The position numbers and the translations under genes are program-made. 38,949 nucleotides of DNA from Cyclobacteriaceae bacterium. Its GTDB lineage: Bacteria; Bacteroidota; Bacteroidia; Cytophagales; Cyclobacteriaceae. Shown here one piece after another: positions 1-37,653 of this stretch (within the stretch, counting starts at the first letter, position 1; every line of letters begins with the position of its first letter). The stretch lies in the NCBI GenBank assembly GCA_036002745.1, contig DASYTA010000270.1:1-38949 (forward strand), read 5' to 3'. A model generated the notes under the pieces. That model saw only the letters and a program-made list of their open reading frames with translations, did not search any database and was not told where the DNA came from.

Positions 1-85
1 TGTCCTTAGACAATAAAGTCTCGGGCCGTTTTGACCACAATAAATGTGAATTGGAAAATCAATTGAACAAAATAGTTCCGGATTA
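1..85 (+). repeat. Transposon end with spaced TnsB-type sites (Tn7L-like)
   Basis: Terminal TGT; sites AGACAATAAAGTCTCGGGCCG (8-28) and GAACAAAATAGTTCCGGATTA (65-85) resemble Tn7 TnsB sites. Possible degenerate site at ~182-200. Confidence 0.85.
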
Positions 86-224: not shown

Positions 225-1706
225 TTACTTCATCTGCCTCTTCTTGTATTCATTCCAGTTTTCCGCAACTTGACAAATGAATTTTCCACTTTCTGGTAGT
301 AACGTAAGGGGGGTCTTTTTATGAACCTTAATTTGTGTTAATAGGAAGGTCTTCGAAATTCGTCTTTGCACATTTGGTAGATCAAGTTTTCTATACGTCA
401 ATTGTAGCTCCGCCAAAGTCGCACGATCACGTTGAATCAAATCTACTTTTCTCCTTCCAATCGCTTTTGCTACACGATTGCGCTTTGAAGGTCTGGGCTT
501 CTGACTTTGTCGGACTAACCAATGCTGGGCATCACGTAATTGCGGTTTCCAACGGTGATCAACAATTTTTTTAACCACCCTGAAGCATACGCCAATTCTC
601 CTTGATATTTCATTAAAAGAGAGTCCGCTTGATTTCAGCATCCGTACTCTGTCTTGAAAATTCTTCCCATAATCCAATACCCATGGCTTCCTTTGATTTT
701 CGATATAGTCGATAAATTTGATGCCACATTCTGGGCAGGTCGCAAAAAAACCGTTCTCGGTTCCGTTGTATACCTTCAGCGATAGATAAGCTTCTGGGGG
801 GAGTTCCACCTCATAGACTCCGCAAAAAGGGTTAATACACTTGACCACTTTGGTATTCAAGCTTTTCACATACTCGAGCACCATCAAGAAGAGAACGGGA
901 TGGACCGCTGATCTTCTGTTCATAATTGTCTCTCGAAAAACACGCTTAGGGCTTTCCAACAAGCGAGCATAGCTTGGATATTTGTTGGACATTCGTGTCC
1001 GAAGATTCTTCAGAAAAAAGTCTCCCCTTACCCAATTCTTTCGGATAATTTTAGCAAAGCCCTTTTTATCGGCGGTGTGATGGATTTCATCCAAGTCTAT
1101 CTTTTTTCCTTGTAGTATCTCGACCAATTCTCGACTAAGATCTTGGGAAGAATCTGTTGATATGGCCTGGTCGTGCTGGATTACCAAATCCGCAGCAAAA
1201 ATCTTCCCGGTTCCTAAATCACTTTCTGAAGGCACCCAATGAGCTAAATCGCAGTCATGGACTACGCATTTCGTCACAAAGGGAATATTATGACATCGTG
1301 TCCAAAAGGCTTCACCATAAGTTTCTCTTTGAACAGCAGCGCACAATGGGCAATAACCAAAAGACTCTTTGCGAATTTCAAGCAAGGCACCGAAGTGACG
1401 GCCTCTTGTACCTTTCAACATGTATTTCACAATGCTTTTCTTTCTTTTGGAATTTGAAAATGCTCCAATCAATGGATAAATCGTATGTTTACTCATCAGA
1501 GTTTCTATGTCACATTTTATAACGCAAGTAATTCTCTCAACAAATCGTAATAAATTGTTTGGTAGATGAAGGCTAAGCGTTGAAATTTTAGTTCCAAATA
1601 AATCAGCACAACCTTTTTTCTGAGATGAGTTTGTATGTTCAATATATCTCGCGACAATGCTATATAGTAACTCATCAGGATAAGGGTCAGGGAAATAGGC
1701 AATCAT
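225..1706 (-). CDS. tnsD: TnsD-like target selector (TniQ domain + C-terminal Zn ribbon/HTH), 493 aa
   Basis: N-terminal FPDPYPDELLYS..ARY; TniQ Zn finger CPLC...H...C..H; extra CINPFC/CPEC and HTH-like LSFNEISRRIGV; last gene of the tns operon. Confidence 0.85.
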   Translation of the reverse strand: MIAYFPDPYPDELLYSIVARYIEHTNSSQKKGCADLFGTKISTLSLHLPNNLLRFVERITCVIKCDIETLMSKHTIYPLIGAFSNSKRKKSIVKYMLKGTRGRHFGALLEIRKESFGYCPLCAAVQRETYGEAFWTRCHNIPFVTKCVVHDCDLAHWVPSESDLGTGKIFAADLVIQHDQAISTDSSQDLSRELVEILQGKKIDLDEIHHTADKKGFAKIIRKNWVRGDFFLKNLRTRMSNKYPSYARLLESPKRVFRETIMNRRSAVHPVLFLMVLEYVKSLNTKVVKCINPFCGVYEVELPPEAYLSLKVYNGTENGFFATCPECGIKFIDYIENQRKPWVLDYGKNFQDRVRMLKSSGLSFNEISRRIGVCFRVVKKIVDHRWKPQLRDAQHWLVRQSQKPRPSKRNRVAKAIGRRKVDLIQRDRATLAELQLTYRKLDLPNVQRRISKTFLLTQIKVHKKTPLTLLPESGKFICQVAENWNEYKKRQMK

Positions 1707-2590
1707 TGTTTCAATGTTTTTTTACTTTGCAATTCTAATTCTCTTAAGAAGTCTTCCAACACCAGAATTATCATTGGAAAAACTCCACCCCAATTTCCAT
1801 TAATTATTCTCGGAATTTGGTGAGCAAGTAGCGGAGATAAATGGTGCAGATACGGATAATTTTGGTCAACATATCTTCGCACATCCTGAATAAAATTTCG
1901 ATTTATCACGACCCTACTCGTCAACTTCTTCGCACAACCAAATTCAAGTGATCTGCGATAAATTTCTTGAGTGTCCATTGGCTTCGCGCCATTTAGAATA
2001 TCAATACAACGCTGATCAAAATTTTTTAGGGGGAAATTTTTGGTAACATCAGTTATTCGGAATAATGACGCTTCGGCACTCAAAATATTTCCATCTCTCA
2101 TCTCTCTATTTGACAATGCAGGTTGAACCAAATCGCATTTATGGATGGTACATGATAACACAAATGGTATGTTATGACTTCGTCGCCAATAGGTTTCTCC
2201 AAGATCTTGTCGGTCAACGGTTGAACACAGGGGACAATATTTGAAACTGTACGCATGCATACCATCAGTTTTTGCGAAAGTGAAGTCATTGTTATAGCCC
2301 TCCATATATTGTCGGATTACTTCCCTTCGCCTTGGTGATGCAAATGCGACGACAAATGGCTGTAGCGTGTGCTTGGCAATAAGTTTTTCTTGATCGATAC
2401 GAATTGTACTTCGAATATTCTCGAAAAGAACGTTTACTTTTTTTGGACAGTAAAAATTCACTCTTTCTGCGTTCGATTGAAACAAGTCTGAAGTCGTCTT
2501 TGACGTGGACTTATTGCAATGCTCAGAGTATCGAGCTATCACACTATACAATAACTCATCCGGATAGGGAGTAGGAAAATAAGGTATCAT
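1703..2590 (-). CDS. tniQ: Short TniQ-family protein, 295 aa
   Basis: FPTPYPDELLYS..ARY; CPLC...YWRRSH...C..H; follows tnsC; 4-bp ATGA overlap with the next gene. Confidence 0.85.
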   Translation of the reverse strand: MIPYFPTPYPDELLYSVIARYSEHCNKSTSKTTSDLFQSNAERVNFYCPKKVNVLFENIRSTIRIDQEKLIAKHTLQPFVVAFASPRRREVIRQYMEGYNNDFTFAKTDGMHAYSFKYCPLCSTVDRQDLGETYWRRSHNIPFVLSCTIHKCDLVQPALSNREMRDGNILSAEASLFRITDVTKNFPLKNFDQRCIDILNGAKPMDTQEIYRRSLEFGCAKKLTSRVVINRNFIQDVRRYVDQNYPYLHHLSPLLAHQIPRIINGNWGGVFPMIILVLEDFLRELELQSKKTLKQ

Positions 2591-2624: not shown

Positions 2625-4148
2625 TTAGATAAGAATTTCTTGCAAAGTCTTTACCTGACCGGCCTCCTTCAATAAGTTATAGTTATCCAAATTAGATGCG
2701 CCATTTTCGCACACATCAAGCAGGTCTCCAGTCGGTTTCTTAAAAGTCTGCGCTTGAATTGTTCCCGCGACATTCAAGTTCGCAATAGCCTCGGCCAATT
2801 TCTCAAACTTCTTTTCAATAGCCAGCACATGAAAATCCTTTAAAATCATTTTTATGCACTCGCTTAGTTGTGACTTATCCATTTCTGGCCACCTATTTTT
2901 AGCGAACTCAATCAGAAATTTTTCATCGTCTGGTCTTCCGCAGACATCTTTTTTTGATTCCTTCTTCAAACCTCGCATTAAACTTTGAGTCATTTGAACA
3001 TCTGAATATTGGCTAAGAATTAAGCGATCACTTTTTGCCAACGCTTCGATGATTGGAGCTGTGCCTATCAGTTGACCTTTTACGGAGTCAAAATATTTTA
3101 ACTCAATAGTTTCTGAATTGTTTGACAATGCAATGTCTTGAACGAGACAATGGATTTGAATGAGCAGTCTAAGAATTCCTTGTGATTCTCGATAGTACGC
3201 CATCATTAATTCAGGAGTTAATTCTCCTGGCGCACGTAGAACCTGATGTTTCCACAGCTGCCTCAGTACGAACTTCCACTCCTCATCATCTTCATGAAAT
3301 CTGTCGACTATTGGCATCCCAATCCCCTGAATCCGGCTGGCAGTTTGAAAGTCTCCGAACAAAATGGGCGCAGCTTGATCTGTGCCAATGTATATAATCG
3401 GAACGCCAACAGTATTTGTGAGCTCCTTAAAGAAGTTCATAATTTTTCTTCGAATTATTTCATTCGAGTTTTCCAGATTATGTACTTCATCCACTACTAT
3501 TAATGAGAGTCTATGCAAGATTGCTTTAAGACCGACGGTAATTATAAGGCGTTCCTCTGATTCCTTCCCGTGTTGTTGGAAGTAATTTGTTCCTAATGCT
3601 CGATCGAATTCATTGAGTATAGATAAGCATAGTTGTTTGGTAGAACCCTTAACTGTACAATCTACTTTCAAGTAAGTTACCTGACGGATTCCAAAATCCA
3701 AATGGTCGACCACCTGAGGAATCATCTGAAACACTCTGTTGACAATGGTTGTCTTACCCATTCCGCTTATTCCAAGAAACGGAAATCCAAGAACGGTTTC
3801 TCGATTAACCAATAAACTATTGGGGCAACCCTTCATGTTCCTAACTTTCTTTAACGATTTTATCCAATCTGCTGGGGTACGAGCTGTTAAACTCTCATAC
3901 ATGACAATGAGCATTTTAATTGTGAAGTAATAATGGAAGGTCAATGGAATAAAAAGCTTATGACGCAATTCAATCAACTGCAGCAGTCGGTCACCAAGCT
4001 CTGCCTGTGGATCAAGCGCCGGCGATTGGGCAATCCTTTGAAAAAATTCTTCTTTGCTCATGATATTTGGCAAAGCGTTCAATAATGGATTATTGTCATC
4101 TTTTTTCATACTGATTTTGTTTAAAGGTTTAGTTGTCGAAAAGTACAT
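2625..4148 (-). CDS. tnsC: TnsC AAA+ transposition regulator (alternative start 4109)
   Basis: Walker A GISGMGKT, Walker B LIVVDEVH, YLKVDC motif; position after tnsB. Confidence 0.9.
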   Translation of the reverse strand: MYFSTTKPLNKISMKKDDNNPLLNALPNIMSKEEFFQRIAQSPALDPQAELGDRLLQLIELRHKLFIPLTFHYYFTIKMLIVMYESLTARTPADWIKSLKKVRNMKGCPNSLLVNRETVLGFPFLGISGMGKTTIVNRVFQMIPQVVDHLDFGIRQVTYLKVDCTVKGSTKQLCLSILNEFDRALGTNYFQQHGKESEERLIITVGLKAILHRLSLIVVDEVHNLENSNEIIRRKIMNFFKELTNTVGVPIIYIGTDQAAPILFGDFQTASRIQGIGMPIVDRFHEDDEEWKFVLRQLWKHQVLRAPGELTPELMMAYYRESQGILRLLIQIHCLVQDIALSNNSETIELKYFDSVKGQLIGTAPIIEALAKSDRLILSQYSDVQMTQSLMRGLKKESKKDVCGRPDDEKFLIEFAKNRWPEMDKSQLSECIKMILKDFHVLAIEKKFEKLAEAIANLNVAGTIQAQTFKKPTGDLLDVCENGASNLDNYNLLKEAGQVKTLQEILI

Positions 4149-6168
4149 TCAATGTGTCAGTCAATGATGGAAGTCCGGATGAATGTGCCCTCTTCTTCGG
4201 CTCTGTTTTTCGGGGAGGACCTTTGGTCACTTCAGGATCAACTTGCGCTAAAACAGTTTCACGGTGACGATTTATTTCCTTCTTCCGGTTTTCTCGAACA
4301 TTTTCGATTTCGATTTTCTTCGGTCTCCGGGCTTTCGCTTCTCTAATTATCTTATTTTGTTCCTGTCTTTTTTCTACTTCGTCATCGAGAGCCTGTCTTT
4401 TGTGTAAAATTTTCTTTTCACCAAGATCCTGCAGAAAGTTTTCCATTTCGAAATAACTCTGAAAGTTGATTTCTTGTTTGGGTTCCAATGGGATCATTTT
4501 TCCATCGTATCTCAGAAAGGTTTGCCGACAATCTGAAGGGTTGTAGGACACCTCGCATGCAGTTTTACCAAATGAGAAGTTGTGGATCAATGCATCGTAC
4601 TTTTCATCGACAGGAAAAAAGTGATAAGGCTTAATAAATATTCCTTTTCTCGAAACGCTGCATGTCTTTGTCGGCAAGCAGTTTCTCCAAACAGTCGTCT
4701 TGTCGAGCTTTCTAAAATTCCCCAAACCATTCTTTTTCGCCCAATTGAAAATTTCAAGTGGAGTTGGATTAATATTGTCTCGCCTCATGTCGGGAGTGAG
4801 GGGATAGTCGTCCATCCAATGATTCTTATTATAAAAAAGAATTTCCCTGATAATTAACGCCATCATGTCGTTTAACGTGAGCGTAGCTTGCTTCCTTGAG
4901 TCCTTCGTGATTCTCGGCTCATCATTTTTGTCGATAAGCCCAAGTCCATTCAAAATACCTTTTAGTTTTGATTGAAAGACTCCCATCTGCACTTCGACCA
5001 AACTTTTCAGGTCCGGTCGATAAGATGGTGTATTGGTTAAATTGATTTTCAAGTTTTTAGTAAGAGAACTTGCTGCGTCCGCCAAAAACTCACCACGGTC
5101 CGCAATTATTTTAAACGGTACATAACAGGATGGCCATAGATCCTCGGTAATGTAAATCCCATACCTGTTGCAGAATTCAACTTTGTCTTCTGTTGTGTTT
5201 ACTACACACATGCACCCAGTTAAATAAGAAGGATGTTCCGGTGTGATATAGACACCCGTTATCAAACCACTAAACACGTCAACAGTGAAGTAAATTGTTA
5301 GCCGGCCGATGTAACGGTCTCTGAATTCTGTAGATAGAACTCGCACATTATCTATCGTGCAGTCGATCATAACTTCCGACATAGGACCGAAGGCATTATC
5401 GCGCACCGTCCCTTTTAAAAGCCGTAGCCCCTTTAGGTACTTTATCGTACCCGTCCGTTTTTTTATTATTTCAATCGCATCGTTGAGTTCCCTTCCCCAA
5501 TAAATGAATTGCCTCAATGATGGGGCGTTAACTCCTTTCAAATTTTCAAAAGCGAGAAAATCTACATGCGCACTCGTCAACGAATTCTTTTCATTTTCAA
5601 TGTAGAACTTCTTGAATCCCTTCAAAATTTTTTCCTTCATGTCATTAGTCAGGACTAACCTTGCTATGGGCACTCTATCTTTTCTGCCAAGTGTATTCTT
5701 GGTTACTTTTTTCCTTACGCCTACTGCTCCACATGCGCTAAATCCGGGAAGCACGGCGTTGTCATCACATCCATGCGCCCAATATTGTTTTAGCAATTCA
5801 AATAGAACGGACTTTTTAAGGAAGCCTTCTTTTCTTGACAGAAAATTGATTGCCTTGTTGCGCCATTTCGAATCAAAAATGTCGGGGCTGTCGACCAACT
5901 CATTAATCGAAGTCATTCGAAATTCACGGTAACGCTTTTCAGCCTCTGATAGGTCTTCTTCTAGTCTATCTATCTTAAAGGGATCGTGATCAAGCAATCT
6001 GATTTGAGGCTTATAAAAAAAATCGATCGATTCCCTGTAAGGCATTCTCAATGGCTCACCGCTCTTAATTTTGATTACGATGAAGTCATCGCGTTCCGCT
6101 TCAGCCAAAACTCTGAAGTGGAGATCATTGTGGACGTCTTTGTAAACTCTATTTATTAATGGTCTCAT
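4129..6168 (-). CDS. tnsB: TnsB DDE transposase
   Basis: IDCT...DVFSGLITG, ADRGE, TPSYRPDLKSLVE (DDE/Mu-like core); overlaps tnsA and tnsC. Confidence 0.92.
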   Translation of the reverse strand: MRPLINRVYKDVHNDLHFRVLAEAERDDFIVIKIKSGEPLRMPYRESIDFFYKPQIRLLDHDPFKIDRLEEDLSEAEKRYREFRMTSINELVDSPDIFDSKWRNKAINFLSRKEGFLKKSVLFELLKQYWAHGCDDNAVLPGFSACGAVGVRKKVTKNTLGRKDRVPIARLVLTNDMKEKILKGFKKFYIENEKNSLTSAHVDFLAFENLKGVNAPSLRQFIYWGRELNDAIEIIKKRTGTIKYLKGLRLLKGTVRDNAFGPMSEVMIDCTIDNVRVLSTEFRDRYIGRLTIYFTVDVFSGLITGVYITPEHPSYLTGCMCVVNTTEDKVEFCNRYGIYITEDLWPSCYVPFKIIADRGEFLADAASSLTKNLKINLTNTPSYRPDLKSLVEVQMGVFQSKLKGILNGLGLIDKNDEPRITKDSRKQATLTLNDMMALIIREILFYNKNHWMDDYPLTPDMRRDNINPTPLEIFNWAKKNGLGNFRKLDKTTVWRNCLPTKTCSVSRKGIFIKPYHFFPVDEKYDALIHNFSFGKTACEVSYNPSDCRQTFLRYDGKMIPLEPKQEINFQSYFEMENFLQDLGEKKILHKRQALDDEVEKRQEQNKIIREAKARRPKKIEIENVRENRKKEINRHRETVLAQVDPEVTKGPPRKTEPKKRAHSSGLPSLTDTLNVLFDN

Positions 6169-6940
6169 CAGCTATAATTTTAAAGTTGAATAGTTGCATA
6201 TCCAGATTTAAACTTCGCCCGATATCAAACCAAACCCGTTGTGTCGCTAACAAGTGATAAAAAATCCGGCAACAGTCACCGAATTGAATTCTCAGTTTGA
6301 GAGCCGACTGCTTAACAAACTCTCGCAGGAGTAAATTCTTGTCTAATGAACACCTCTTAAACTCTTCAAAAACAACAGACGCTAAGAGTGAGTCCATTGT
6401 AAAATACTCGCGAAGAAATTTGACATTGTTCAACTTTATCTGATCAAGTTGTTTTTCAGTGACAATGCACCACTCGACATCTCTTTGTTTCCACCACTCT
6501 TTTTCAATCTGAAATTTTTGTAAAACTCTTTTAGTTATCAATGAAGACGGTTTCACGGTCACCGCTTTTTGTGACATTATTCCTGCCCGATCAACTGTCA
6601 ACAAAAAATCGGTCGTCATTACGACATCCTTATTCTTTTCATCATGCGGATGAATTATGTTTAAGTTGGCCGCAATCTGCTGAGTACTCGACAACGGTAG
6701 TAATGGATATTGCTCCTGAATATCTTTGATCGCAGGATTGAACCTGAATAGTATAGAGTAGTTCTCTTCCAGATTTGAAAGCACGATAAACTCTCGATCA
6801 ATTTTCGCATCACCTGCGATCCTTGTTGTGCATCCCTTTGAAGAAAAATGTCTAGGACGAATAAAGGGTTTATAATTTGCTCCATGACCTTGACCCAAGC
6901 CTCGCTTGAGTCTAGTCTCGTCGGAAATTCTCGATTTCAT
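6149..6940 (-). CDS. tnsA: TnsA endonuclease subunit
   Basis: GQGHGANYKPFI, LSNLE, DIQEQYPLL, VMTTDFLL, VKP, KFQIEKEWW are typical TnsA motifs. Confidence 0.95.
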   Translation of the reverse strand: MKSRISDETRLKRGLGQGHGANYKPFIRPRHFSSKGCTTRIAGDAKIDREFIVLSNLEENYSILFRFNPAIKDIQEQYPLLPLSSTQQIAANLNIIHPHDEKNKDVVMTTDFLLTVDRAGIMSQKAVTVKPSSLITKRVLQKFQIEKEWWKQRDVEWCIVTEKQLDQIKLNNVKFLREYFTMDSLLASVVFEEFKRCSLDKNLLLREFVKQSALKLRIQFGDCCRIFYHLLATQRVWFDIGRSLNLDMQLFNFKIIADETINK

Positions 6941-7149
6941 AAATGATGGTGATTGGGAGTTTGAAATCCTTTCTGACTTCTTCCATTTAGGAAATCGGGA
7001 TCGATATAGCTGTTAAAAAAGTACGACATGTTTCGCACCAGAGTAGAAGTAAATGGGCTTAGCTTTTCGGTTTGCCCAAACAGTTCCGCTTGAGCTCCAG
7101 TCCCCTTAGTGCCTTCACGGGGCTTCGCAATTGAATTTTTGGTTTTCAT
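6937..7149 (-). CDS. Small hypothetical protein (70 aa) coupled to tnsA
   Basis: ATG start after an AT-rich leader; stop overlaps the tnsA start (ATGA). Confidence 0.5.
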   Translation of the reverse strand: MKTKNSIAKPREGTKGTGAQAELFGQTEKLSPFTSTLVRNMSYFFNSYIDPDFLNGRSQKGFQTPNHHHL

Positions 7150-7400: not shown

Positions 7401-7772
7401 ATGGAAATACAAGAGTTACTCAAAGTATTGTCCCGAAATATCAGCCAAATCAGGGTGGCGAAAGGGATGTCACAAAAGGAGGTCGCACTCGGAGCTGGCG
7501 TCGATCAAGGACAGTATTCTCGCATTGAAAATGGAAAGATTGACCCCGCTCTATCCACCCTTCAAAAACTGGCGGATGCTTTTGATGTTCCCCTAACAGA
7601 TTTTTTTAAGGCTGACGCGCCGGAAGAAATGGTATTCACGGATAAGCTAAAGGCCGTTATGAAAATGAACAAGGAAGACAAGCAACTGGTTGAGAAGATA
7701 ATCGATATGACTTTGTTCACAAGAAAGAGCTTGGATAACGCCGAAGCGTTAAATCAGAAGAAGTCAAAATGA
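7401..7772 (+). CDS. XRE-family HTH transcriptional regulator
   Basis: IRVAKGMSQKEVA...YSRIENGK..P..STL.KLA HTH_3 signature; divergent from the tns operon. Confidence 0.9.
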   Translation: MEIQELLKVLSRNISQIRVAKGMSQKEVALGAGVDQGQYSRIENGKIDPALSTLQKLADAFDVPLTDFFKADAPEEMVFTDKLKAVMKMNKEDKQLVEKIIDMTLFTRKSLDNAEALNQKKSK

Positions 7773-9012: not shown

Positions 9013-10110
9013 ATGTGCTACTATAAATCGCTAGCCCAAAAAGAAGCAGAACTGCTTGCTCACTACGATGCGTCGTTTCAAACAATCACAGATGAGCTTG
9101 AACCAATTAAGGAACGTTTCACTATCCTGCTCCAAAAAGATAATAATCTAGGCGCTCTCACGCTCAACAAAGCAGACCAAATCCATAATATCCTTGTAGC
9201 CTATTCTCAAAAAGATGCACTGCCTGCTGCTTACACTAAACAGGAACTGTCTGAAATGAAATGGTGCCTCAAAACACTTTCTGCATTTCATGATGGCGGG
9301 ATCTATCGTTACATGGAAAACGGCTTTGATTATCTCCCCACTCCAATCATCACTGCAGGTGATCCGAAAAATTTCAAGTTGTTCAGGTGGGGCCTTATCC
9401 CTTTTTATATGAATGACAAGGAGAAGGCAATGATACTCCGAACAAAAACTCTGAATTGCATTTCTGAAGAGATGTACAACACTCAATCATTCAAAGACGC
9501 AGCAAAAAATGCACAGCGGTGTTTGATACCAGTCTCCGGATTTTATGAATGGCGATGGCTCGACGACGAAGGCACCGTGAAAATTCCTTGGTATGTAACT
9601 TTTAGAGATCGCCAAATACGATCGATGGCAGGGTTGTACTCCCGTTGGAAAGACAATGAAACTAGTGAATACTATTACAGCTATACTGTGCTCACGACTG
9701 CAGCAAATGAAATTCTTGAATACGTCCACAACAGTAAGAAGCGCATGCCGGTGTTCATTGCCAAAGAGAATGAACAAGCCTGGCTCAATCGCGACCTGAC
9801 TCCAAAGGATGTAACTGAATTATGCCATCCCACAGAAGATCCGGCGATGGGTGCTTATACGATATCTAAACTTTTGACGACAAGGAATATTAATACCAAC
9901 GTACCTGAAGTACGAAAGCCAATGAACTATCAACAGGCCATTGATCAGGCAAATCAATATCTTCAGTCTGGCGATAAGAAGAAAGCCCTTGAAGCGTTTA
10001 AGAATTCAATCAGTGGCGAAAAAATAAAAATTGACGATTTGGTCAATGTCGCTAACCAAAAAATATTGGCTCAGCTTGGAGCTGGAATAACCACAGATAT
10101 CCTAGATTAG
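9013..10110 (+). CDS. SOS response-associated peptidase (SRAP/YedK/HMCES family), intact and enlarged
   Basis: N-terminal MC, WGLIP, RCLIPVSGFYEW, MAGLY, VH...RMPV motifs all present. Confidence 0.92.
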   Translation: MCYYKSLAQKEAELLAHYDASFQTITDELEPIKERFTILLQKDNNLGALTLNKADQIHNILVAYSQKDALPAAYTKQELSEMKWCLKTLSAFHDGGIYRYMENGFDYLPTPIITAGDPKNFKLFRWGLIPFYMNDKEKAMILRTKTLNCISEEMYNTQSFKDAAKNAQRCLIPVSGFYEWRWLDDEGTVKIPWYVTFRDRQIRSMAGLYSRWKDNETSEYYYSYTVLTTAANEILEYVHNSKKRMPVFIAKENEQAWLNRDLTPKDVTELCHPTEDPAMGAYTISKLLTTRNINTNVPEVRKPMNYQQAIDQANQYLQSGDKKKALEAFKNSISGEKIKIDDLVNVANQKILAQLGAGITTDILD

Positions 10111-10829: not shown

Positions 10830-10869
10830 TAGAGGATTGATCAATCCCATTTTTGAACATTGAAAATAT

Positions 10870-12934: not shown

Positions 12935-15900
12935 TTACCTGAAATTTCTTCCCTCATGAAAGACACTTTCCTCAAATATCTTCATTTGGGATCTATCTCG
13001 AGTGTCTGGCCCCCGTGAAGTTGTCTCATCTGATCGCATACGCGTGTCAAGCGTTGGATACCCCGTGCCATACGGAATCAAGTTTTGAAGCAGCTTTGAA
13101 ACATTAAAGCAACGTTTCACGATAACATGAATTACTTCGCCTTCGATCTGGAGTTTACCTTCTACCATCAACAAACGTGATTGAATGATTTCCTTCCGGT
13201 ACTGATCAAACAGATCTCGCCATACAACGAGGTTCATTGTTCCTGATTCATCTTCAAGAGTGATGAAACAAATTCCGCTCGCGGTTCCTGGGCGTTGCCT
13301 TACTAGAATAAGACCTGCAACTTTTACCCGGTCACCATTCTTTGCCTCCTTGAGTGATCGTGCCGTTAGGCATCGAAGTTGTACAAGTTGTTCGCGAATA
13401 AAGCTCACTGGATGCGCTTTCAATGACAATGATATCGAAGCATAATCGTGAACTACGTGTTCGGACATTGCCATTTCAGGAAGTGAAATATTTTCTTCTC
13501 CAACATTTTTTGCCTGATCAGAAAACAGCGCTTTCAATTGGTGATCTTGAGTTGATGCTTCCCACAACGCTTTTCTTCGATCATATCCTATCGACCGAAA
13601 TGCATCTGAGTCTGCCAGCTTCCCCAAAACAGCATCCGTTATTCCAGCTTCACGAAGTTCATGAATCGAATGATAACCATTGCCCCTTGCTTGAATTAGG
13701 TGTTCTATGTCATCTTCACGTAGTCCTTTCACTTGTCTAAAACCCAAGCGAAGTGGACAGTATTTCCCAGTTCTTTCTTCAAGTTTGTTGTCCCAGTTAG
13801 AAAAATTAACATCCACCGGAAGCATCTCTACTCCATGGTTGGTGGCATCAATTACAATTTGCGCTGGTTCATAAAATCCCATTGGTAAACTATTGAGCAG
13901 GGAGCAAGCGAACACATCAGGGTAATAGCATTTCAACCAAGATGAAACATAAACTAGAAGGGCAAAACTCACTGCGTGGCTTTCCGGAAATCCATAACTA
14001 CCGAATCCCTCTAATTGCTTAAAAACTCTGCGAGCATATTCCAAGGTGTATCCATTTGAGGTCATCCCATTGATGAGTTTGTCTTCAAAATGAGAGATCA
14101 GCCCATTGACTTTAAATGTTGCCATGCTTCTTCGCAGCTTGTCAGCTTCGGCTGGCGTAAATCCTGCAGCTACAATAGCAATCTTCATGGCTTGCTCCTG
14201 GAATAGTGGCACACCAAGTGTTCGGCCTAAAATTTCTTCTAGTTCCTTCGATGGATAAGTGATTGGCTCCTCTCCGTTTCTTCTTCTTAGGTACGGATGA
14301 ACCATGTCACCTTGAATAGGACCTGGCCTCACGATAGCGACTTCGATCACTAAATCGTAGAAACAATTCGGTCGTAGTCTTGGCAACATGGATTGTTGTG
14401 CGCGGCTCTCGATTTGAAATACTCCAATTGTATCTGCGTGAGTCACCATCTCATATACCTTAGGATCATCCTGTGGAATATTCGCCAAGGTTAGATCTAG
14501 ATTGTAGTAGCCCTTTGCTAGATCAAATGCTTTACGAATACAGGTCAACATTCCCAACGCGAGCACGTCAATTTTCATAAAACCAAGTACATCAATGTCG
14601 TCCTTATTCCATTCAATGTTCGTGCGATCTTCCATCCGCGCGTTGATGATTGGACAGAGATCAGAAAGTTTTCCTTCGGTAATTACAAATCCACCAGTGT
14701 GCTGGCCAAGCTGCCGCGGAAAACCAATGAATTGTTCTGTAAGCTGAAGCACTTTCTTAATGGTGGGGTCGTCTGGATTTATTCCTTGACTAATGATTCG
14801 ATTACGATCAAACCCTTCATCTTTAAAATCCCAGATCAAACCTGAGAGTCGACCAATGGTATCCACTGAAAGGCCCATTGCTTTTCCTACATCCCGAATT
14901 GCTCCTTTATGATGTTGTTGTGTTACTGTTGCCACGACAGCAGCGCGGTCACGTCCATACTTACTAAATATGTATTGCATGACTTCCTCCCTTCGCTCAT
15001 GTTCGAAGTCTACATCGATATCAGGGGGTTCATTGCGAGCAGATGAAATAAACCTTTCAAACAACAAATCGAATTTCGATGGATCAACTGAAGTGATTCC
15101 GAGGCAATAACAGACTGTAGAGTTTGCAGCTGAACCACGGCCTTGACAGAGGATTTTTTGCCCTCTTGCGTAGCGGACAATATCATATACGGTGAGAAAG
15201 TATTCAGCGTAGTTGACCTCATTAATAAAACTGAGTTCATACTCGATATTCGCTCTTACCTTATCCGGAATCTGATTGTTGAAAATTTGTTTCGCTCCTT
15301 CCCATGCCAAGTAGGTAAGTTCTTCCTGCGGTGTACGGCCTTCACTTGTTACTTCTTTGGGGTATCTGTATTTGAGTTGGTCGAGCGAGAATGTGCATGC
15401 ATCACTAATTATTTGCGTTTGCTCGATCGCATCTGGATATTGAAGGAACAGCCGTGCCATTTCTGTCGGCGGTTTTAAATATCTTTCTGCATTAGGATGT
15501 AAACGAAACCCGGCATTGTGGATAGTGCACTTTTCCCTGACACAAGTCACAACATCCTGCAATTCTCTGCGAGTAAAAGAATGATAGTGAATATCGTTTG
15601 TTGCTACCATCGGCATACGGAGTTGCTTACTGAGCCGTGACATGCGATACAATAGTTTTCCATCATCACCACTATAGGTTCTTGACGCGGCAATCCAAAG
15701 TTGTTCACTTAATACGTCACGATATTCTCGTGCGAGTCTTTTGAATTGATCTTCAAAATCAAATACTTTATTTAGTGTAGTTGGGGGAAGTAGTATAAAT
15801 TTTGATCCTGCCGCATACTCAAATACATCCGCTTTGTACAATTCACACTTGCCCTTTTCGGTTCTGAGATTTCCAATGGTCAACAAATTGGATATTCTGG

Positions 15901-16156
15901 AGTAAGCGTTGATATCAGTGGGAAGCGCTAGAAGACTTGGACCGTCCTTTAAATCGAGACGGCAACCAGGTATGATTCGGATGTCTAATTGCTTCGCCGC
16001 TGCATGTGCGCGAACTATTCCGGCAAGTGTATTGCGATCAGTAATAGCGATCGATTTGTAACCTAGAAGCGATGCTTCTTTAACGAGTTCTTCCGGATGC
16101 GAAGCACCCCGCAGAAAACTGAAGTTCGTAGTTACCTGTAACTCTATATAGCTCAT
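12935..16156 (-). CDS. dnaE2: Error-prone DNA polymerase III alpha (DnaE2/ImuC)
   Basis: NFSFLRGASHPEEL PHP start, GRGSAANS, PDIDVDFE, YGFPESH, RQRPGTA, C-terminal GRNFR. Confidence 0.97.
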   Translation of the reverse strand: MSYIELQVTTNFSFLRGASHPEELVKEASLLGYKSIAITDRNTLAGIVRAHAAAKQLDIRIIPGCRLDLKDGPSLLALPTDINAYSRISNLLTIGNLRTEKGKCELYKADVFEYAAGSKFILLPPTTLNKVFDFEDQFKRLAREYRDVLSEQLWIAASRTYSGDDGKLLYRMSRLSKQLRMPMVATNDIHYHSFTRRELQDVVTCVREKCTIHNAGFRLHPNAERYLKPPTEMARLFLQYPDAIEQTQIISDACTFSLDQLKYRYPKEVTSEGRTPQEELTYLAWEGAKQIFNNQIPDKVRANIEYELSFINEVNYAEYFLTVYDIVRYARGQKILCQGRGSAANSTVCYCLGITSVDPSKFDLLFERFISSARNEPPDIDVDFEHERREEVMQYIFSKYGRDRAAVVATVTQQHHKGAIRDVGKAMGLSVDTIGRLSGLIWDFKDEGFDRNRIISQGINPDDPTIKKVLQLTEQFIGFPRQLGQHTGGFVITEGKLSDLCPIINARMEDRTNIEWNKDDIDVLGFMKIDVLALGMLTCIRKAFDLAKGYYNLDLTLANIPQDDPKVYEMVTHADTIGVFQIESRAQQSMLPRLRPNCFYDLVIEVAIVRPGPIQGDMVHPYLRRRNGEEPITYPSKELEEILGRTLGVPLFQEQAMKIAIVAAGFTPAEADKLRRSMATFKVNGLISHFEDKLINGMTSNGYTLEYARRVFKQLEGFGSYGFPESHAVSFALLVYVSSWLKCYYPDVFACSLLNSLPMGFYEPAQIVIDATNHGVEMLPVDVNFSNWDNKLEERTGKYCPLRLGFRQVKGLREDDIEHLIQARGNGYHSIHELREAGITDAVLGKLADSDAFRSIGYDRRKALWEASTQDHQLKALFSDQAKNVGEENISLPEMAMSEHVVHDYASISLSLKAHPVSFIREQLVQLRCLTARSLKEAKNGDRVKVAGLILVRQRPGTASGICFITLEDESGTMNLVVWRDLFDQYRKEIIQSRLLMVEGKLQIEGEVIHVIVKRCFNVSKLLQNLIPYGTGYPTLDTRMRSDETTSRGPDTRDRSQMKIFEESVFHEGRNFR

Positions 16157-16163
16157 GACTCAC

Positions 16164-17660
16164 CTAAGCAAAAAAACCATGAATGAACCATTGATATCTT
16201 TCCTCGTGATAGTGACCTAACCGGAACAACCAATAACGATTACCCTCATCATCTTCCACTCTATAATAATCACGGTGTTCTCCTTGCTGCAGCCACCACT
16301 CTTGTTCGATGCGTTCAGGGCCATCAGCCTTTATAATAGTGTGCAGCTTTTCCTTATATCTGAATAGCATTGGTGGATAATCCGGAATAGGCGCTGTTAC
16401 TTCAATTGCTTCTGGTGCTTTCAACAGCTGTATAGGTCGTGGCTTTTCTTCACGCCATGGTGCAACAGAAATTTCTTCTAAAGATGTTGCAAGCTTTATT
16501 GATCGCTCCGGCCAGTAATGTTCATCTGCAACGTATCGATGGATGGCATTCTCTCCAATTTTGTTTGCTATTCGATCCAGGAGTTCGGACACACGACTGT
16601 CCTTTAGTCCGCCGGATCCTTCCCACATTTTTTCTTGGGCGGGAAACAGATCCTCTACCTTGGGTGCTTCAAGAACAAAAAGTTCAATACCCAATGAAGG
16701 TTCTATGCTCGCAATTTTTATCTCAAATAATTTGAAGAGATGTTTGATACTTCTTGAAGGTCGGCTCGTACCAATTTCAATTTGTTCAATCTTATTATCG
16801 ACACGATAACACTTGAAGGCCGCTGTTCGAATTCCTTTTTGTTCGTGTTCGAGTCGAACGCATAATAATTCCAATAATCGATTCAGTGCTATTTCAATTC
16901 CAGCTGCAGTCACTATGGGATCCATGCACGGTAGTCGCTCATGATAAGGTTCTATTGGATGAATCGGTTCTACTAATTCAATTTCCTGACCCAATGCTTT
17001 GTCAAGCTGATGAAGGAACTGCGCGCCGAAGCGTCTGCGCAATGCGGGTCGCGGCATTTGGCTGAATTGACGAATGCGATGAAGTCCAAGCTTATGCAGA
17101 CGTTCTGAAATTTCTGCGTCGATGCGCAACGCTGCCGACGGCAAGTTCATTAGAACTTGAACATGCTTACCTATTGGCACAACGCAAGAGTTAGCAAACC
17201 GAGCAATCCCCCAAGCTGAACCAATGGTGTCGGCCATCGCCGCTCTTACATCATAACCACGAGCGGTGAGTTTTCTGATAATATCTTTCAAGTAAGGTTC
17301 ATCTCCATCCCATAAATGAGAACATCCAGTTACGTCAAACAGTAGTCCATCGGGTGGATCAATTGCTACAAACGGAGTAAAACGAATACACCACTCGCCA
17401 AGTCGACGAAGTAATTTGTCAACAAGATCGGGCTTATCATCGCGAACTTGCAAGTCAACGATAACTGCTCTCGCATCAGCAAGTACCATTCCTACGGATA
17501 CTCCTTTTGACTCAGCTACTTTGTTAGCAGCAACAACAATCATCCTTCCATGAGAAGGTGATCTCAGAACGAAAGGCAAATTCTTTAGTTGAGTTTGACG
17601 GAGGGTGAACCAGTCCGTCTTGAGGTGCGGGAGCCAGATGGATACAAATCGCTTCGACAT
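16164..17660 (-). CDS. imuB: ImuB, Y-family polymerase-like protein
   Basis: RFTP.VAID.PDGL..DVTG, GPERIEQEWW, RDYY.VED, WF.HGFFA; lies between imuA and dnaE2. Confidence 0.95.
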   Translation of the reverse strand: MSKRFVSIWLPHLKTDWFTLRQTQLKNLPFVLRSPSHGRMIVVAANKVAESKGVSVGMVLADARAVIVDLQVRDDKPDLVDKLLRRLGEWCIRFTPFVAIDPPDGLLFDVTGCSHLWDGDEPYLKDIIRKLTARGYDVRAAMADTIGSAWGIARFANSCVVPIGKHVQVLMNLPSAALRIDAEISERLHKLGLHRIRQFSQMPRPALRRRFGAQFLHQLDKALGQEIELVEPIHPIEPYHERLPCMDPIVTAAGIEIALNRLLELLCVRLEHEQKGIRTAAFKCYRVDNKIEQIEIGTSRPSRSIKHLFKLFEIKIASIEPSLGIELFVLEAPKVEDLFPAQEKMWEGSGGLKDSRVSELLDRIANKIGENAIHRYVADEHYWPERSIKLATSLEEISVAPWREEKPRPIQLLKAPEAIEVTAPIPDYPPMLFRYKEKLHTIIKADGPERIEQEWWLQQGEHRDYYRVEDDEGNRYWLFRLGHYHEERYQWFIHGFFA

Positions 17661-17661
17661 T

Positions 17662-18390
17662 TCATCCCGCTTTCTTTTGTATTTCTAAGAATGACATTAC
17701 AAGTTCTCTTTGCGCTTGTTGAAATCCTTTGTCTGTCCACTGGACATCCCATGTACCAGGTTTTCCATTTCGTATCCGTTGCAATTCAACTCTCCACTTT
17801 GCAAATGCAACACCGGGGAGTTCATCCAATTTTTCACTTGACAGCGAAGAGATCTTCCAACGAGACACACACGCGGTTGTGCTAAGCCGTTGATTGTTGT
17901 TGAGAATAAAACCCGTGACGTGACTTTTTTCAACAGCCAATTGCAGACGTCTTGATGCAGTAAAACTTAAGTCATTGAGTTCCCCAACCACAGCAGCCAG
18001 CGCACCACACTTCAACGATTCATCAATCGCCCACAATATTTCTTTTTCTTTGTTTGTGTCGATGAAAACAAATTTTCCGGGATCAATGGAAAAGTTCTTC
18101 AACCCTGGTGGAAACAATTTTCGTGATGAGCTAATCCATAGTACCGCACCATCATTTCCTATTAAGGTTGAAAGCAATCCACACAGAAATCCACTTGTTG
18201 CAGCTAGGTTTTCAGCACAGGGTGATAAAAATTCATGAACGGAACCGATAGGAAAGGATCGGTTGGGAAATGCATCTGCAATCGGTCCTAATGTTTCATT
18301 CAACTCGACATTATCGGCAAATCGAAGGCCTTGCAGCCGAAGAATATCTTCCCGCAGGATCTTGAAAATATCTGCCCTCGCTGATTGCAT
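17662..18390 (-). CDS. imuA: ImuA, RecA-like accessory protein
   Basis: FP.GSVHEF, ASRRLQLAVE, W.VEL.RIRNG.PG motifs; first gene of the imu cassette. Confidence 0.93.
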   Translation of the reverse strand: MQSARADIFKILREDILRLQGLRFADNVELNETLGPIADAFPNRSFPIGSVHEFLSPCAENLAATSGFLCGLLSTLIGNDGAVLWISSSRKLFPPGLKNFSIDPGKFVFIDTNKEKEILWAIDESLKCGALAAVVGELNDLSFTASRRLQLAVEKSHVTGFILNNNQRLSTTACVSRWKISSLSSEKLDELPGVAFAKWRVELQRIRNGKPGTWDVQWTDKGFQQAQRELVMSFLEIQKKAG

Positions 18391-22809: not shown

Positions 22810-22837
22810 AACCGATGCAATTAATTATTGATGATTT

Positions 22838-25982: not shown

Positions 25983-27953
25983 ATGATCTTGCACTATGTA
26001 TATATTTTAGACTATGAAGGTGTTTTTATCAACATAGGATTCAACCTTGGCGGTGCATATCGATTTAAATATGACATTAACTCTAAGCATCTAGAAGTTA
26101 CAGAAAATCCATTTTATACAAAAGATTTTTTTAACCTACTTGATTCAACTGAAAACGGTAACGCTGCTATTGGGAATGTGAGTGGAATCATTGGCGGGAA
26201 TGGTTCTGGAAAATCTAGTTTTCTCGCTTTTATGAAGACAAATTTCGTGCGCGGAATGTCTGGGATGGTGTACCCAGTGATTGTTGCCCTTACGACTGAT
26301 GATGGGGAACTGAAACTTTACCATGATAGAGGTATTCCAATCGAAAATAATTCAGGAGATTTTTTAGGGTTTGAAATCATTGAGACATCTTCTAATGCAA
26401 CGAAGCATGTGATTCCTGGTGCAGGTGTCATTAATATTTCAAATCGATCAGAGATTGATGAACTAGTAGAGACGGACTTCGTCTTTCTCTCAAATGTTTT
26501 TGACAATGTTGTGCAATATGAATTTCAGGGGCTGCACAATTTATCAACTGATTTTTTGCTAAAAAATGATTTGAAAGCAAAAGCGGAATTGATTAACACC
26601 TGGGGGATTAATTTGATGGCAGCAAATTCCGAGATTGATTTTCATAAATTTCAAGATCTTCACCGTCAACTCGAATTTATAAATGCAAACAAAATGAGGG
26701 AAAACGTTCCCTTCGATTTACCCAATAAGGTAATTGTTTCAATCGGAAAGGATTTATTGTTCAGCAAGGACAGTGAGATTGGATTACAGGCAGAGTCAAT
26801 GTTAAATGCGTATGAATATCAAGATTTTATTCGCCGGTTCAAATCCTACGCCCAACTTCAGCTTGACAAAAATGATTTCAAATCAAGAGGGGTAATTTAT
26901 ATAACTGCAAATGCATTGCTGAATTATTTTTATGAGATAGCAATCTTTACCAGGTATTATAGAATTTCTGGTTTAGATGATTTTAAAATCGAATCTTTCC
27001 AAAATTATCAGCAAGCTTTTGATAATTTAATCCAATTTTTGGTGACTGATCTCGAAAATTTCAAGCGCGTCAGTGATAAAGATAGGTTTGCCTATGAACC
27101 TTACGGGAAAGATCTAGACCAGCTAAAGGGTCTTAAGGAATTGTTAGATTTTTTATTGCTAAATCTCTCAAAACAAAATGTTGGCGAAAGAGGAAATAAT
27201 TTTCTAATTGAAGGTAGCGTAAAGTACATAGATGAGTTCTTCTCAATCTACAGGCGGACGTACAGATATGATTCATACCTAAATTTCACATGGTATGACT
27301 TGAGTTCTGGGCAAAAAGCTTTTTTAAATATTTATGCACGGCTTTACTCATTGAGTGATCAAATTATCTCTCAAAGGGGTGCCAACCTAATACTCAAAAA
27401 AAATATAATCGTGCTCGTCGATGAAGGAGAGGCTTTTCTTCACCCGAATTGGCAGAAATCATTTCTGACAAATTTATTAGAATTCCTCCAGTCCAATTTT
27501 AGATCTGTGAACTTTACACGGAGCATACAGTGCATACTGACTTCAAATTCACCTTTCCTTGCATCGGATTTACCTAGCTCTAATGTGTGTTTTCTGAAAA
27601 AAGATAAACAAGGTGTAACTAAGATTCATGATAGTTTGGAGGACAGGAAACAGACATTTGCCGCAAACATTCATTCTTTATTAACCGATGCCTTTTTTAT
27701 GGAGCAGGGAACAATTGGAGAGTTCGCAAAAAGAAAAATAAACAAGGTGATTGAGTTGCTACAAAAGAAACAAAGCACGATCGAAAGCAATAGAGAACTG
27801 ATTGAGAATACAATTAATATGATTGGTGAGCCGGTTATTAAGTCAAAGCTTACTCAGATGTTAGCAGAGCGAATTTCAGTTGACTACATTAATTTGGGCA
27901 ATCGCATAAGGTCTCTGGAAGAGGATGTTAAAGAGCTTAAAAAGAAGCAATAG
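25983..27953 (+). CDS. ABC-type ATPase, Septu PtuA-like
   Basis: GGNGSGKS, LSSGQ signature, LVDEGEAFLHPNWQ, TSNSPF..SDLP, TFAANI, IGEFA; followed by an HNH gene. Confidence 0.85.
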   Translation: MILHYVYILDYEGVFINIGFNLGGAYRFKYDINSKHLEVTENPFYTKDFFNLLDSTENGNAAIGNVSGIIGGNGSGKSSFLAFMKTNFVRGMSGMVYPVIVALTTDDGELKLYHDRGIPIENNSGDFLGFEIIETSSNATKHVIPGAGVINISNRSEIDELVETDFVFLSNVFDNVVQYEFQGLHNLSTDFLLKNDLKAKAELINTWGINLMAANSEIDFHKFQDLHRQLEFINANKMRENVPFDLPNKVIVSIGKDLLFSKDSEIGLQAESMLNAYEYQDFIRRFKSYAQLQLDKNDFKSRGVIYITANALLNYFYEIAIFTRYYRISGLDDFKIESFQNYQQAFDNLIQFLVTDLENFKRVSDKDRFAYEPYGKDLDQLKGLKELLDFLLLNLSKQNVGERGNNFLIEGSVKYIDEFFSIYRRTYRYDSYLNFTWYDLSSGQKAFLNIYARLYSLSDQIISQRGANLILKKNIIVLVDEGEAFLHPNWQKSFLTNLLEFLQSNFRSVNFTRSIQCILTSNSPFLASDLPSSNVCFLKKDKQGVTKIHDSLEDRKQTFAANIHSLLTDAFFMEQGTIGEFAKRKINKVIELLQKKQSTIESNRELIENTINMIGEPVIKSKLTQMLAERISVDYINLGNRIRSLEEDVKELKKKQ

Positions 27954-29046
27954 AAGTATGTTTTTATACAAAAGTGGCCCTGGAGGAAATTTTGATCAAC
28001 TGGCGAAAATACATTTCGATCAACTTAAAGGGATTCGAATTTTTAAGAACGGCGGCAGTGGCCACTATGCTTTTTCAATCATTAAAAAAATCGACAATAA
28101 TAGTAAAGCAAGGCGGATTGGAAGAGAATTTTTCATGGACCTGCAGCGTGATAACTACAAGTTGGCATTGGAGATCATATCGGGAAAGCCTAAGCGTCTA
28201 GCAGAAATTGTTGAGAGCATTAATCAAAATATTGCGTCAAGTAGATATCCTGAAATTTTTAGAATATCACGAAAGGGCGTCTCGCTAACGAAGTTCGGCC
28301 AAAAGGTCGAAAGTACGTTTGACTACGGTACCTTTTCAAATAAGAATACTCCAAATTGGAATGCCTACCTGCTTGCAGATTTAGTTGGAATCAATGTGTG
28401 CCCTTATTGCAACCGAGGGTACACTTTTACAGCTAAGAATACTAACGAGAAAATTGTTCGACCCGAGTTTGATCATTTCTATTCGAGAGAAAAACATCCC
28501 TACCTTAGTCTATCTTTCTATAATCTTATTCCATCTTGTCACATTTGCAACTCCAATCTTAAACATAAAGTTGAGTTCTCGGTAGATACCCACTTACACC
28601 CTTATGAGGAAAGCCTTGATGAGTTGGTGAGATTTAGCGTGCGCCTCAAAAAGAAAAATACTGGTTCGTTAGTTGATGAAAAAAAGTCATTTGGTGAAAG
28701 TTTTTTTTATGGGGATTTAGGCAGCTTCGATTTAGTCCTGCGAGCTGCGAAAAGAGGGATTAATCGTAAAACTCTTAAACGCGCAATGAGAAGTGTACGA
28801 ACGTTTAGAATTCGAGAGCTGTATCAAAAACATAAGGACATGGTAATCGATATGATTTTGAATACTATTGTGTATGACGACAGCCAACTAAACTCTCTTC
28901 TCAACAACTACGGCAATTTATTTCGGGATCGGAACGATGTATTAAGGCACATAACAAAAAATTATGTAGGTCTTTCGGAAATGCCTAACAGGACATTCTC
29001 CAAGTTAGCAAAAGACATTCATACCGAATTTGGCCTAATTTATTGA
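27925..29046 (+). CDS. HNH endonuclease, Septu PtuB-like (probable ATG at 27958)
   Basis: CPYCN, EFDHFY, NLIPSCHICNS.LK, HPY motifs. Confidence 0.87.
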   Translation: MLKSLKRSNRSMFLYKSGPGGNFDQLAKIHFDQLKGIRIFKNGGSGHYAFSIIKKIDNNSKARRIGREFFMDLQRDNYKLALEIISGKPKRLAEIVESINQNIASSRYPEIFRISRKGVSLTKFGQKVESTFDYGTFSNKNTPNWNAYLLADLVGINVCPYCNRGYTFTAKNTNEKIVRPEFDHFYSREKHPYLSLSFYNLIPSCHICNSNLKHKVEFSVDTHLHPYEESLDELVRFSVRLKKKNTGSLVDEKKSFGESFFYGDLGSFDLVLRAAKRGINRKTLKRAMRSVRTFRIRELYQKHKDMVIDMILNTIVYDDSQLNSLLNNYGNLFRDRNDVLRHITKNYVGLSEMPNRTFSKLAKDIHTEFGLIY

Positions 29047-29053
29047 ATCCCAT

Positions 29054-30553: not shown

Positions 30554-30587
30554 TGGTACTGAACATCTGTATTTTTGAGTCGTTGAA

Positions 30588-31085
30588 TCATGACTTCTTA
30601 CTGACCAATTCTACTTTAATTTGTCTTAGGAGCTTAATTGTTTCGCTATGGTCTTTACTGACATCTTTGGACACCTGAATTATTACAAATGACAAAAAGA
30701 ATAACATGCATAAAATCATTAAAGTAATTGCCATCAATAAATTAAGATAGTCGCTGAATTCAGGACCATTAACTGTTTTAGAATCTACCTGGGTGAACGG
30801 AGTGAGGGGGAAGAGAAATGCTGTAAATACTACTCCTGCGACACCGAAAACAATCTCAGGACTCAGACCTTTTTTTGCATCGGAATTATATAATTCTATA
30901 AGTGACGAAACTCCTTCTATGGATAGCAAATTCCTAGTCTTAAGAATCTTTTTCAGAATCTTAACTCTTTTTTCTGGCGTAGGGCTCCGACTAAAGAAAT
31001 TAACTATCCTTTGAAAAAAGGTAGTTGATTTTCTACTTCGATTAATCTTTTTTGAGTAGGCACTATTTATATCTTCTATTATCAT
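30588..31085 (-). CDS. Hypothetical 2-TM protein (165 aa)
   Basis: Two hydrophobic segments (IVFGVAGVVFTAFLF; LLMAITLMILCMLFFLSFVII). Confidence 0.65.
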   Translation of the reverse strand: MIIEDINSAYSKKINRSRKSTTFFQRIVNFFSRSPTPEKRVKILKKILKTRNLLSIEGVSSLIELYNSDAKKGLSPEIVFGVAGVVFTAFLFPLTPFTQVDSKTVNGPEFSDYLNLLMAITLMILCMLFFLSFVIIQVSKDVSKDHSETIKLLRQIKVELVSKKS

Positions 31086-31264
31086 TTACAAAACGTTTCA
31101 AGCATGTTAAACTCCGACCTTCATAATGCTTTTATATTCGTTCGAAGCTGAAATGGGTTTTCATCACACCATGGGGATATTCGGAAATATTTGAAACCGA
31201 TTTTAGATTTTATTTCTTCGCTCAAGAAAGTTGGTGTTTTGTTGATTCGGGCATAGTAATACGT

Positions 31265-33547: not shown

Positions 33548-33571
33548 AATGTCTGGTTTAAGTCGACCAGT

Positions 33572-37583: not shown

Positions 37584-37653
37584 CAATCCGTGACTATTTT
37601 GAACAAGTCCGTAACTATTCTGAACTAGTCCGCACCTTTTTTGTTCACGCACA
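37584..37653 (-). repeat. Transposon end with three contiguous 21-bp TnsB-type sites (Tn7R-like)
   Basis: Minus strand: TGTGCGT GAACAAAAAAGGTGCGGACTA GTTCAGAATAGTTACGGACTT GTTCAAAATAGTCACGGATTG. Confidence 0.9.

Follow-up and report, generated by a model that had tools for sequence, protein, structure and literature searches.

A complete Tn7-like element that encodes a short, core-only TniQ in tandem with a long TnsD was found at two insertion sites in one soil sample, one inside an accessory SRAP gene and the other at the promoter of an ssb gene. The explanation that we favour, with a confidence that stays below even, is that the two selectors serve two protein-guided routes: TnsD would read the SRAP gene, and the short TniQ would reach the ssb promoter via a host protein bound to a conserved repeat array. 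We infer that both insertions were targeted, which selector belongs to which site and that a host protein occupies the array.

The Element and Its Selector Genes

The window, i.e. the whole stretch of DNA that was analysed, is contig C270 of the source genome G000 (DASYTA010000270.1) and comprises 38,949 nt. This genome is 93% complete and divided into 719 contigs, so that a genome-wide absence of Cas or TnsE is not thereby proven. The window DNA is held by one sequencing run of a soil sample, probably the source run of G000, and the contigs and unitigs of this run were used. The whole element covers positions 1 to 37653 of the window (37,653 bp) with both ends present. It possesses tnsA, tnsB, tnsC, a TniQ-family gene and TGT/ACA ends with multiple TnsB sites, by which Tn7-like elements are recognised. 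The gene content suggests a host in the Bacteroidota. The features of the element are as follows:

1..85, no strand: tnsD-side end; terminal TGT, three TnsB-type sites at wide spacings of 27 and 30 bp (sequence and end scorer)
225..1706, minus: TnsD, 493 aa; TniQ core, zinc-ribbon-like region, helix-turn-helix (HTH) and helical C-terminal part (Pfam TniQ and TnsD)
1703..2590, minus: short TniQ, 295 aa; complete TniQ core without C-terminal DNA-binding extension (Pfam TniQ)
2625..4148, minus: TnsC AAA+ ATPase (Pfam TniB/AAA_22); Walker A and B intact
4129..6168, minus: TnsB DDE transposase; catalytic motifs intact, no Pfam match, about 29% identical to annotated plasmid TnsB
6149..6940, minus: TnsA endonuclease (Pfam TnsA N and C)
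6937..7149, minus: 70-aa ORF that shares 4 bp with the start of tnsA; no family in Pfam, NCBIfam, PADLOC or PHROGs
7401..7772, plus: Xre-type HTH regulator, divergent from tnsA; several relatives have similar genes upstream of tnsA
9013..10110, plus: intact cargo SRAP gene (Pfam SRAP), 43-46% identical to the two halves of the interrupted SRAP
12935..18390, minus: cargo imuA-imuB-dnaE2 mutagenesis cassette (Pfam, NCBIfam)
25983..37271, no strand: defence-type cargo; PDC-M62A/B pair, AbiO/Nhi-like helicase, DUF4365-dynamin and a STAND NTPase in two overlapping frames (Pfam, PADLOC)
37584..37653, minus: tnsA-side end; terminal TGT and three contiguous TnsB-type sites with a 21-bp period (sequence, end scorer and three unitigs branching at 37653)

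Both selector ORFs lie on the minus strand downstream of tnsC and overlap by ATGA. They are 32% identical across 293 residues (BLASTP, E 6e-54), and Pfam TnsD is matched by the long protein only. The first-pass annotation had described them as tandem paralogues coupled by ATGA, and both the coupling and the alignment are confirmed, with all motif pairs that it named (PYPDELLYS, YCPLC, HNIPFV, DILNG/EILQG) lying within the BLASTP alignment. It had further stated that only the long protein contains an extra CxNxxC..CPxC region and an HTH; the sequence and the HTH predicted at about residues 346-388 of the structure model agree with this. The AlphaFold model of TnsD (pLDDT 83) superimposes on residues 1-318 of Tn7 TnsD with a Z score of 20.6 and an rmsd of 3.7 over 272 residues. 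The model of the short TniQ (pLDDT 86, pTM 0.85) is a compact and complete core, and its best match is again Tn7 TnsD 1-318 (TM 0.70). TnsD is likely a direct DNA reader. Prediction of a complex between TnsD and the short TniQ, with single sequences as inputs, scored 0.00, which gives no answer either way.

The absence of a Cas or TnsE partner had also been claimed, and this held in all searches conducted. The window ORFs that were scanned (32 against Pfam, 30 against NCBIfam and 24 against PADLOC) contain no Cas family, and a crude k-mer scan revealed no CRISPR-like array. Cas1, the only Cas family sought genome-wide, was not found in G000, with a control that was positive in 7 of 14 genomes. 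An HMM built from five TnsE-like proteins of the family gave no TnsE in the window (best E 0.3), and tblastn with the family TnsE-like proteins gave nothing in G000; as a control for the HMM, all three TnsE-like proteins checked match PF18623. Recombinase or resolvase families were likewise absent among the window ORFs (Pfam, NCBIfam), the 224 bp between tnsD and the element end hold no gene, and none of the 11 unexplained cargo ORFs, considered as partner candidates, matches a PHROGs family. Thus, no gene for a partner of the short TniQ was found in the element, and since neither Cas nor TnsE was found, such a partner, if any, is probably host-encoded.

Two Insertion Sites in One Sample

Positions 1-141 of the window recur at 100% identity at the ends of contigs C524 and C217, which have different flanks. 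C524 contains the 3' half of a SRAP gene, of which the 5' half lies beyond the other end of the element in the window, and the two halves abut. On C217, an ssb gene starts about 100 bp from the element end; this contig is placed in G000 by binning and by carrying the sole G000 copy of a core gene. At the tnsA-side end, three unitigs of the run meet at 37653: one joins the end to SRAP (depth 3.0), one joins the end to another flank (3.6) and one represents the empty SRAP allele (2.7). The other flank begins with GCGAC, the same 5 bp with which the C217 flank ends. It also resembles the region upstream of ssb in relatives and scores 29.5 on the profile of the ssb array described below (95th background percentile -7.1). 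Because of the 5-bp duplication and the array match, the second flank is assigned to the other half of the ssb promoter. The target duplication is therefore 5 bp at the ssb site, compared with 4 bp at the SRAP site, where 5 bp would be usual.

On the same profile, the SRAP site scores -22.9, which is below the background median of -17.0. A motif common to both sites was rejected on this contrast of 29.5 with -22.9. A short CGT..GTA likeness near -30 between the two sites was noticed post hoc.

Each site was seen once, in one sample, and no second element was found at either. The simplest reading is recent movement or the presence of two sub-populations. The depth of the interior (10.5) exceeds the 6.6 summed over the two junctions, and more copies are possible, although depth does not equal copy number. 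Among viral contigs, the pattern of SRAP motif plus element end yielded three chance matches, none with SRAP or tns genes, and the alignment A1 search yielded 0 of 15.

The SRAP Target

The features at the SRAP site in the window are the following:

37654..37657, plus: target duplication ATGA, 4 bp, of the SRAP insertion (junction sequences)
37654..38024, minus: 5' half of the accessory SRAP that the insertion interrupts; C524 has the 3' half, and the empty allele is in the source run
37689..37703, minus: SRAP GFYEW codons, 36-50 bp from the tnsA-side end; candidate recognition box for TnsD, a role that we infer

All five relatives compared have one syntenic SRAP, which is 55-76% identical to the SRAP on C616 and about 30% identical to the target SRAP. 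Since the syntenic copy matches C616 and the target only at about 30%, the target SRAP is of an accessory type. Outside the element, only 2,847 bp of G000 (0.07%) are homologous to the cargo, and the insertion landed there; this rarity argument is post hoc. A further SRAP copy on C97 is uninterrupted and 48-52% identical to the target, i.e. it is closer than the cargo SRAP. A distant element with two long TnsD-like proteins (L047:8275-17842), in which one TnsD is encoded upstream of tnsA, also has a SRAP nearby that is 46% identical to the cargo SRAP of the window. With the closer copy on C97 uninterrupted and a SRAP also present in L047, SRAP may be ordinary cargo. A CoiA-like gene (38050-38874) adjoins the interrupted SRAP on its upstream side and is not part of the element.

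The ssb Promoter and Its Array

The ssb paralogue belongs to the core of the genus, being present in 95 of 110 other genus genomes and in one copy in G000. We examined 28 ssb loci of relatives and aligned the 26 that had the promoter anchor motif. In these 26 relatives, a conserved non-coding array of 57 bp with a CG about every 10 bp precedes ssb. The array ends 3 bp from the element, and the insertion separates it from the ssb promoter. Measured from the tnsA-side end, column conservation in the 26 relatives is 0.83 at 4-22 bp, 0.89 at 23-58 bp and 0.58 at 59-100 bp; the high value at 4-22 bp indicates that the array is not restricted to the zone of 23-58 bp where a recognised sequence would be expected. 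A selector without DNA-binding extension needs a DNA-bound partner, and none was found in the element; between the two sites, it is at the promoter array that a host protein would plausibly be bound.

In the genus relatives L104-L131, the array has a palindromic core of the CGTTTATAAACG type and is often located between ssb and a divergent gene for a DUF2116-like zinc-finger protein. It is unlike the two Bacteroidetes SOS motifs presented in the part of PMC8565304 that was consulted. Judged from its sequence, the array may be the site of a regulator not yet described. The cargo does not contain it as a regulon box, as no profile match above 5 occurs anywhere in G000; the contig that carries the array itself seems to be missing from the G000 assembly.

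Relatives and Origin of the Short TniQ

Elements of this kind are rare. They were detected in 4 of 176 genomes of the genus and in 8, 1 and 1 of 400 genomes each at the family, order and class level, none of them with a short plus long pair. Of the 12 loci from these genomes, six encode TnsD and TnsE, five carry a pair of long TniQ-family genes, and the last is truncated by a contig end. Among 45 metagenome loci, the closest (L030/L031 and L032, with TnsB 47% identical) encode two proteins of about 600 aa and no short copy. Plasmids gave 482 TnsB matches, all below 60% identity, with the best at about 31% among the matches listed. A TnsC scan of the genome collection passed 1 of 159 stretches, which was rejected as a spurious 36-residue match.

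A quick tree of the selectors contained 59 rows, of which 25 were kept for a careful tree. In the latter, the short TniQ forms a clade with P0001 and P0114 (support 99/97), and the long TnsD groups with P0090 (100/97). The short and long groups are sisters at 90/78 only, and all are nested in an eight-row second-slot clade (97/94). An origin of the short TniQ as a cut-down first-slot TnsD is rejected by the AU test (p-AU 1e-81; the group was named after the quick tree had been seen). Since both selectors fall into the second-slot clade and the first-slot grouping is rejected, the lineage likely lost its first-slot selector and duplicated the second, as far as the sequences reveal. P0001, P0114 and P0090 are known as proteins alone, so that co-occurrence of a short and a long selector is shown only in the window element.

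The short subfamily consists of three proteins of 282-295 aa, whose C-termini differ in position by no more than about a dozen residues. In residues 1-160, the short and long groups share 32-44% identity. Over residues 186-283, the short proteins are 39-48% identical among themselves and 16-27% identical to the long paralogues. This shared short-type C-terminal helical domain (Hel2) would fit selection for a new surface rather than decay. A recent decayed copy was also considered and rejected, because only short DNA matches to tnsD remain, and because the short TniQ has its own clade and conserves its Hel2 domain. On whether the short copy is absent or decayed in relatives, as the first-pass annotation had put it, the evidence divides: the closest loci with readable DNA have two long proteins, but intact short relatives exist at 40% identity.

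The other elements with two long selectors vary in their surroundings. In G045 (C4:219392-255088), a complete element of 35.7 kb with two long TnsD-like genes and a TTTTT duplication lies 25 bp after glmS, the glmS stop being 25 bp from the tnsA-side end. Others end beside unrelated genes, namely at L030:12105 (a 110-aa hypothetical protein), on G124:C11 near 72630 and on G136:C18 near 240980; the neighbours in G124 and G136 we take to resemble homogentisate dioxygenase and superoxide dismutase. The element ends in G124 and G136 are not of the TGT type. Second-slot TnsDs may thus have varied targets. L030:2626-3540 and L032:2657-3598 each hold a gene for a protein of 304 or 313 aa just upstream of tnsA. 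These proteins are 36% identical to each other and weakly resemble the C-terminal half of TnsB (E about 2e-7); they were not found in the window.

Possible Roles of the Two Selectors

In the favoured mechanism, the long TnsD would read a conserved coding motif of accessory SRAP genes, and the short TniQ would be brought to the ssb promoter by the host protein predicted on the repeat array, for which one candidate is the DUF2116-like zinc-finger protein whose gene lies divergently to ssb in many relatives. On either route, TnsC would be loaded by the TniQ core, and TnsAB would integrate the element a few turns of DNA from the recognised sequence, towards which the tnsA-side end would point. We prefer this assignment because TnsD proteins read conserved coding DNA, the array looks like the site of a host protein, the insertion hit the 0.07% of the genome with cargo homology, and an archaeal element provides a precedent. 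Tn7 TnsD binds at +23 to +58 (PMC12372198), and recognised sequences tend to lie on the side of the end whose TnsB sites are close together (PMC11406308); in the window element, this is the tnsA-side end. The glmS stop of G045, 25 bp from its tnsA-side end, agrees with such an arrangement. Both sites contain a conserved feature inside the 23-58 bp zone on that side, an argument from distance that is post hoc and involves one event each. The Hel2 domain has been linked to partner binding (Faure et al. 2023, PMC10293859). Against the favoured reading, the roles are reversed with respect to the usual pattern, in which TnsD homes to a core gene. The single event per site, the 4-bp duplication, the uninterrupted and closer SRAP copy on C97 and the SRAP in L047 also count against it. 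Of the possibilities raised in the first-pass annotation, two pathways gain support from the same element at two sites without a common motif; a host partner is supported indirectly, by the conserved non-coding array next to one of the sites and by the failure to find a partner gene within the element.

A rather unlikely alternative is a single route, in which only one of the two sites is a true target of TnsD and the other was hit off-target, the short TniQ being dispensable, damping through competition for TnsC, or relaxing the targeting. In Tn7 TnsD, the N-terminal domain loads TnsC, and its binding to DNA is not sequence-specific (PMC12372198), and TniQ reduces TnsD homing in CyCAST and McCAST (PMC10293859, PMC9881144). 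The lack of a short copy in the closest readable relatives and the atypical duplication at one site point the same way, as does the inclusion of both SRAP and ssb among predicted Bacteroidetes SOS genes (PMC8565304), as damage-induced loci might be more open. A single route is, however, difficult to reconcile with a conserved feature at the expected distance and on the expected side at both sites, with insertion into a cargo homologue as a 0.07% event (again post hoc), and with the retention of its own Hel2 residues by the short subfamily. Still less probable is an exchange of the two roles, so that TnsD homes to the core genome by reading the ssb array, and the short TniQ, together with a partner, directs the element to accessory islands such as SRAP. 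This would match the usual Tn7 lifestyle (PMC11406308), the core status of the ssb paralogue with its canonical 5-bp duplication, and the accessory type of the target SRAP. Yet a gene for such a partner was not found, there is no sign of a protein bound in the middle of SRAP, a phased non-coding array is more simply explained as the site of a host protein, and the separation of array and promoter by the insertion implies that ssb is not an obvious safe haven.

The translational coupling of tniQ and tnsD would also suit cooperation in one pathway, which we consider improbable: TnsD would read the DNA, and the short TniQ would sit on the TnsC ring as a second core or bind TnsD, so that both are needed. 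The resemblance of the short TniQ to Tn7 TnsD 1-318 is consistent with this, given that one solved Tn7 complex has a TnsC:TnsD:DNA ratio of 7:2:1 according to its entry title. AvCAST complexes, however, hold one TnsD or one TniQ per heptamer (PMC13251919), the two dissimilar sites would require an extra explanation, and long relatives of the same clade lack a short copy in readable loci. To return to the two protein-guided routes, a doubtful but specific history may be proposed for them, in which the core-only TniQ was re-tuned to dock on a host protein at the operator-like array of ssb and its TnsD paralogue enters accessory islands via SRAP, both being derived from a single duplicated gene once the first-slot selector, probably one for glmS, had been lost. 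If true, the element would home without any DNA reader of its own on the ssb route and would have built the two-pathway life of Tn7 from one duplicated gene.

Comparison with Known Systems

The dual tniQ-tnsD layout is itself a known class, and the insertion context is new. Faure et al. (2023, PMC10293859) have published 998 dual loci, including short TniQs without partner, and further second TniQs without Cas are listed by Hsieh and Peters (PMC9881144). The dual loci of Faure et al. share with the window element one protein above 400 aa and one much shorter, an in situ duplication and a partnerless short TniQ, for which these authors proposed selectors recruited in trans. In contrast to them, the window element has two natural sites with candidate boxes, its short copy is of the second-slot type and the first-slot TnsD is missing. 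With prototype Tn7 and the glmS/TnsE elements of the family, the element shares the tnsABC order, TGT ends, the TniQ core fold and the recognition zone at the close-site end. It differs in that no TnsE was detected and it is not at glmS, whereas the six family elements have TnsD plus TnsE.

CAST I-B1, I-B2, I-D and Tn7017 likewise have a short core-only TniQ beside TnsD, but no Cas genes or arrays were found in the window. The TniQ of Tn5053 presumably requires bound resolvase. Tn6022 (short TniQ plus TnsF, comM) and Tn5053 (TniQ, res sites) resemble the window element in that a short TniQ depends on another DNA-bound protein and in a target that is a disrupted gene (PMC11406308). They differ from it because the window element has no gene after tnsD, no resolvase was found, and its targets are SRAP and ssb and not comM. 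A Tn7-like element of Heimdallarchaeota (10.1101/2025.07.27.667033) also disrupts its target gene and carries a homologue of it as cargo. For this archaeal element, a single TniQ, a methylase as target and a cargo identity of 75% are described, together with experimental proof, in contrast to 43-46% identity and evidence from sequence only for the window element.

With its complete gene set, both ends and two natural targets, the element makes the function of a partnerless short TniQ directly testable. It bears on the target choice of such TniQs, which was left open by Faure et al. in the part of PMC10293859 consulted. Our literature searches, with supplements and most subscription papers outside their scope, found no paper with SRAP or ssb as a Tn7 attachment site, and a term search of the available text of Benler et al. 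(PMC8649781) gave no mention of SRAP. If the favoured reading is true, SRAP and ssb would be two attachment sites not found in the literature searched, and a natural TniQ core steered by a host regulator would bear on the building of TniQ-adaptor integrators. If it fails, the element adds one case to a class that already counts about 1000 loci.

Further Features of the Cargo

The STAND-type NTPase ORF (437 aa) and an 859-aa ORF at 33572-37271 overlap by about 190 bp in different frames and are possibly one frameshifted gene. At 20785-24487, the cargo holds two similar-looking secreted-type proteins, one of which has an RHS-associated core domain. The cargo DNA at 10432-10831 and 12483-12742 has relatives on contigs C97 and C59 (69% and 77% identical, respectively). 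As C97 also holds the uninterrupted accessory SRAP, related islands are scattered through G000.
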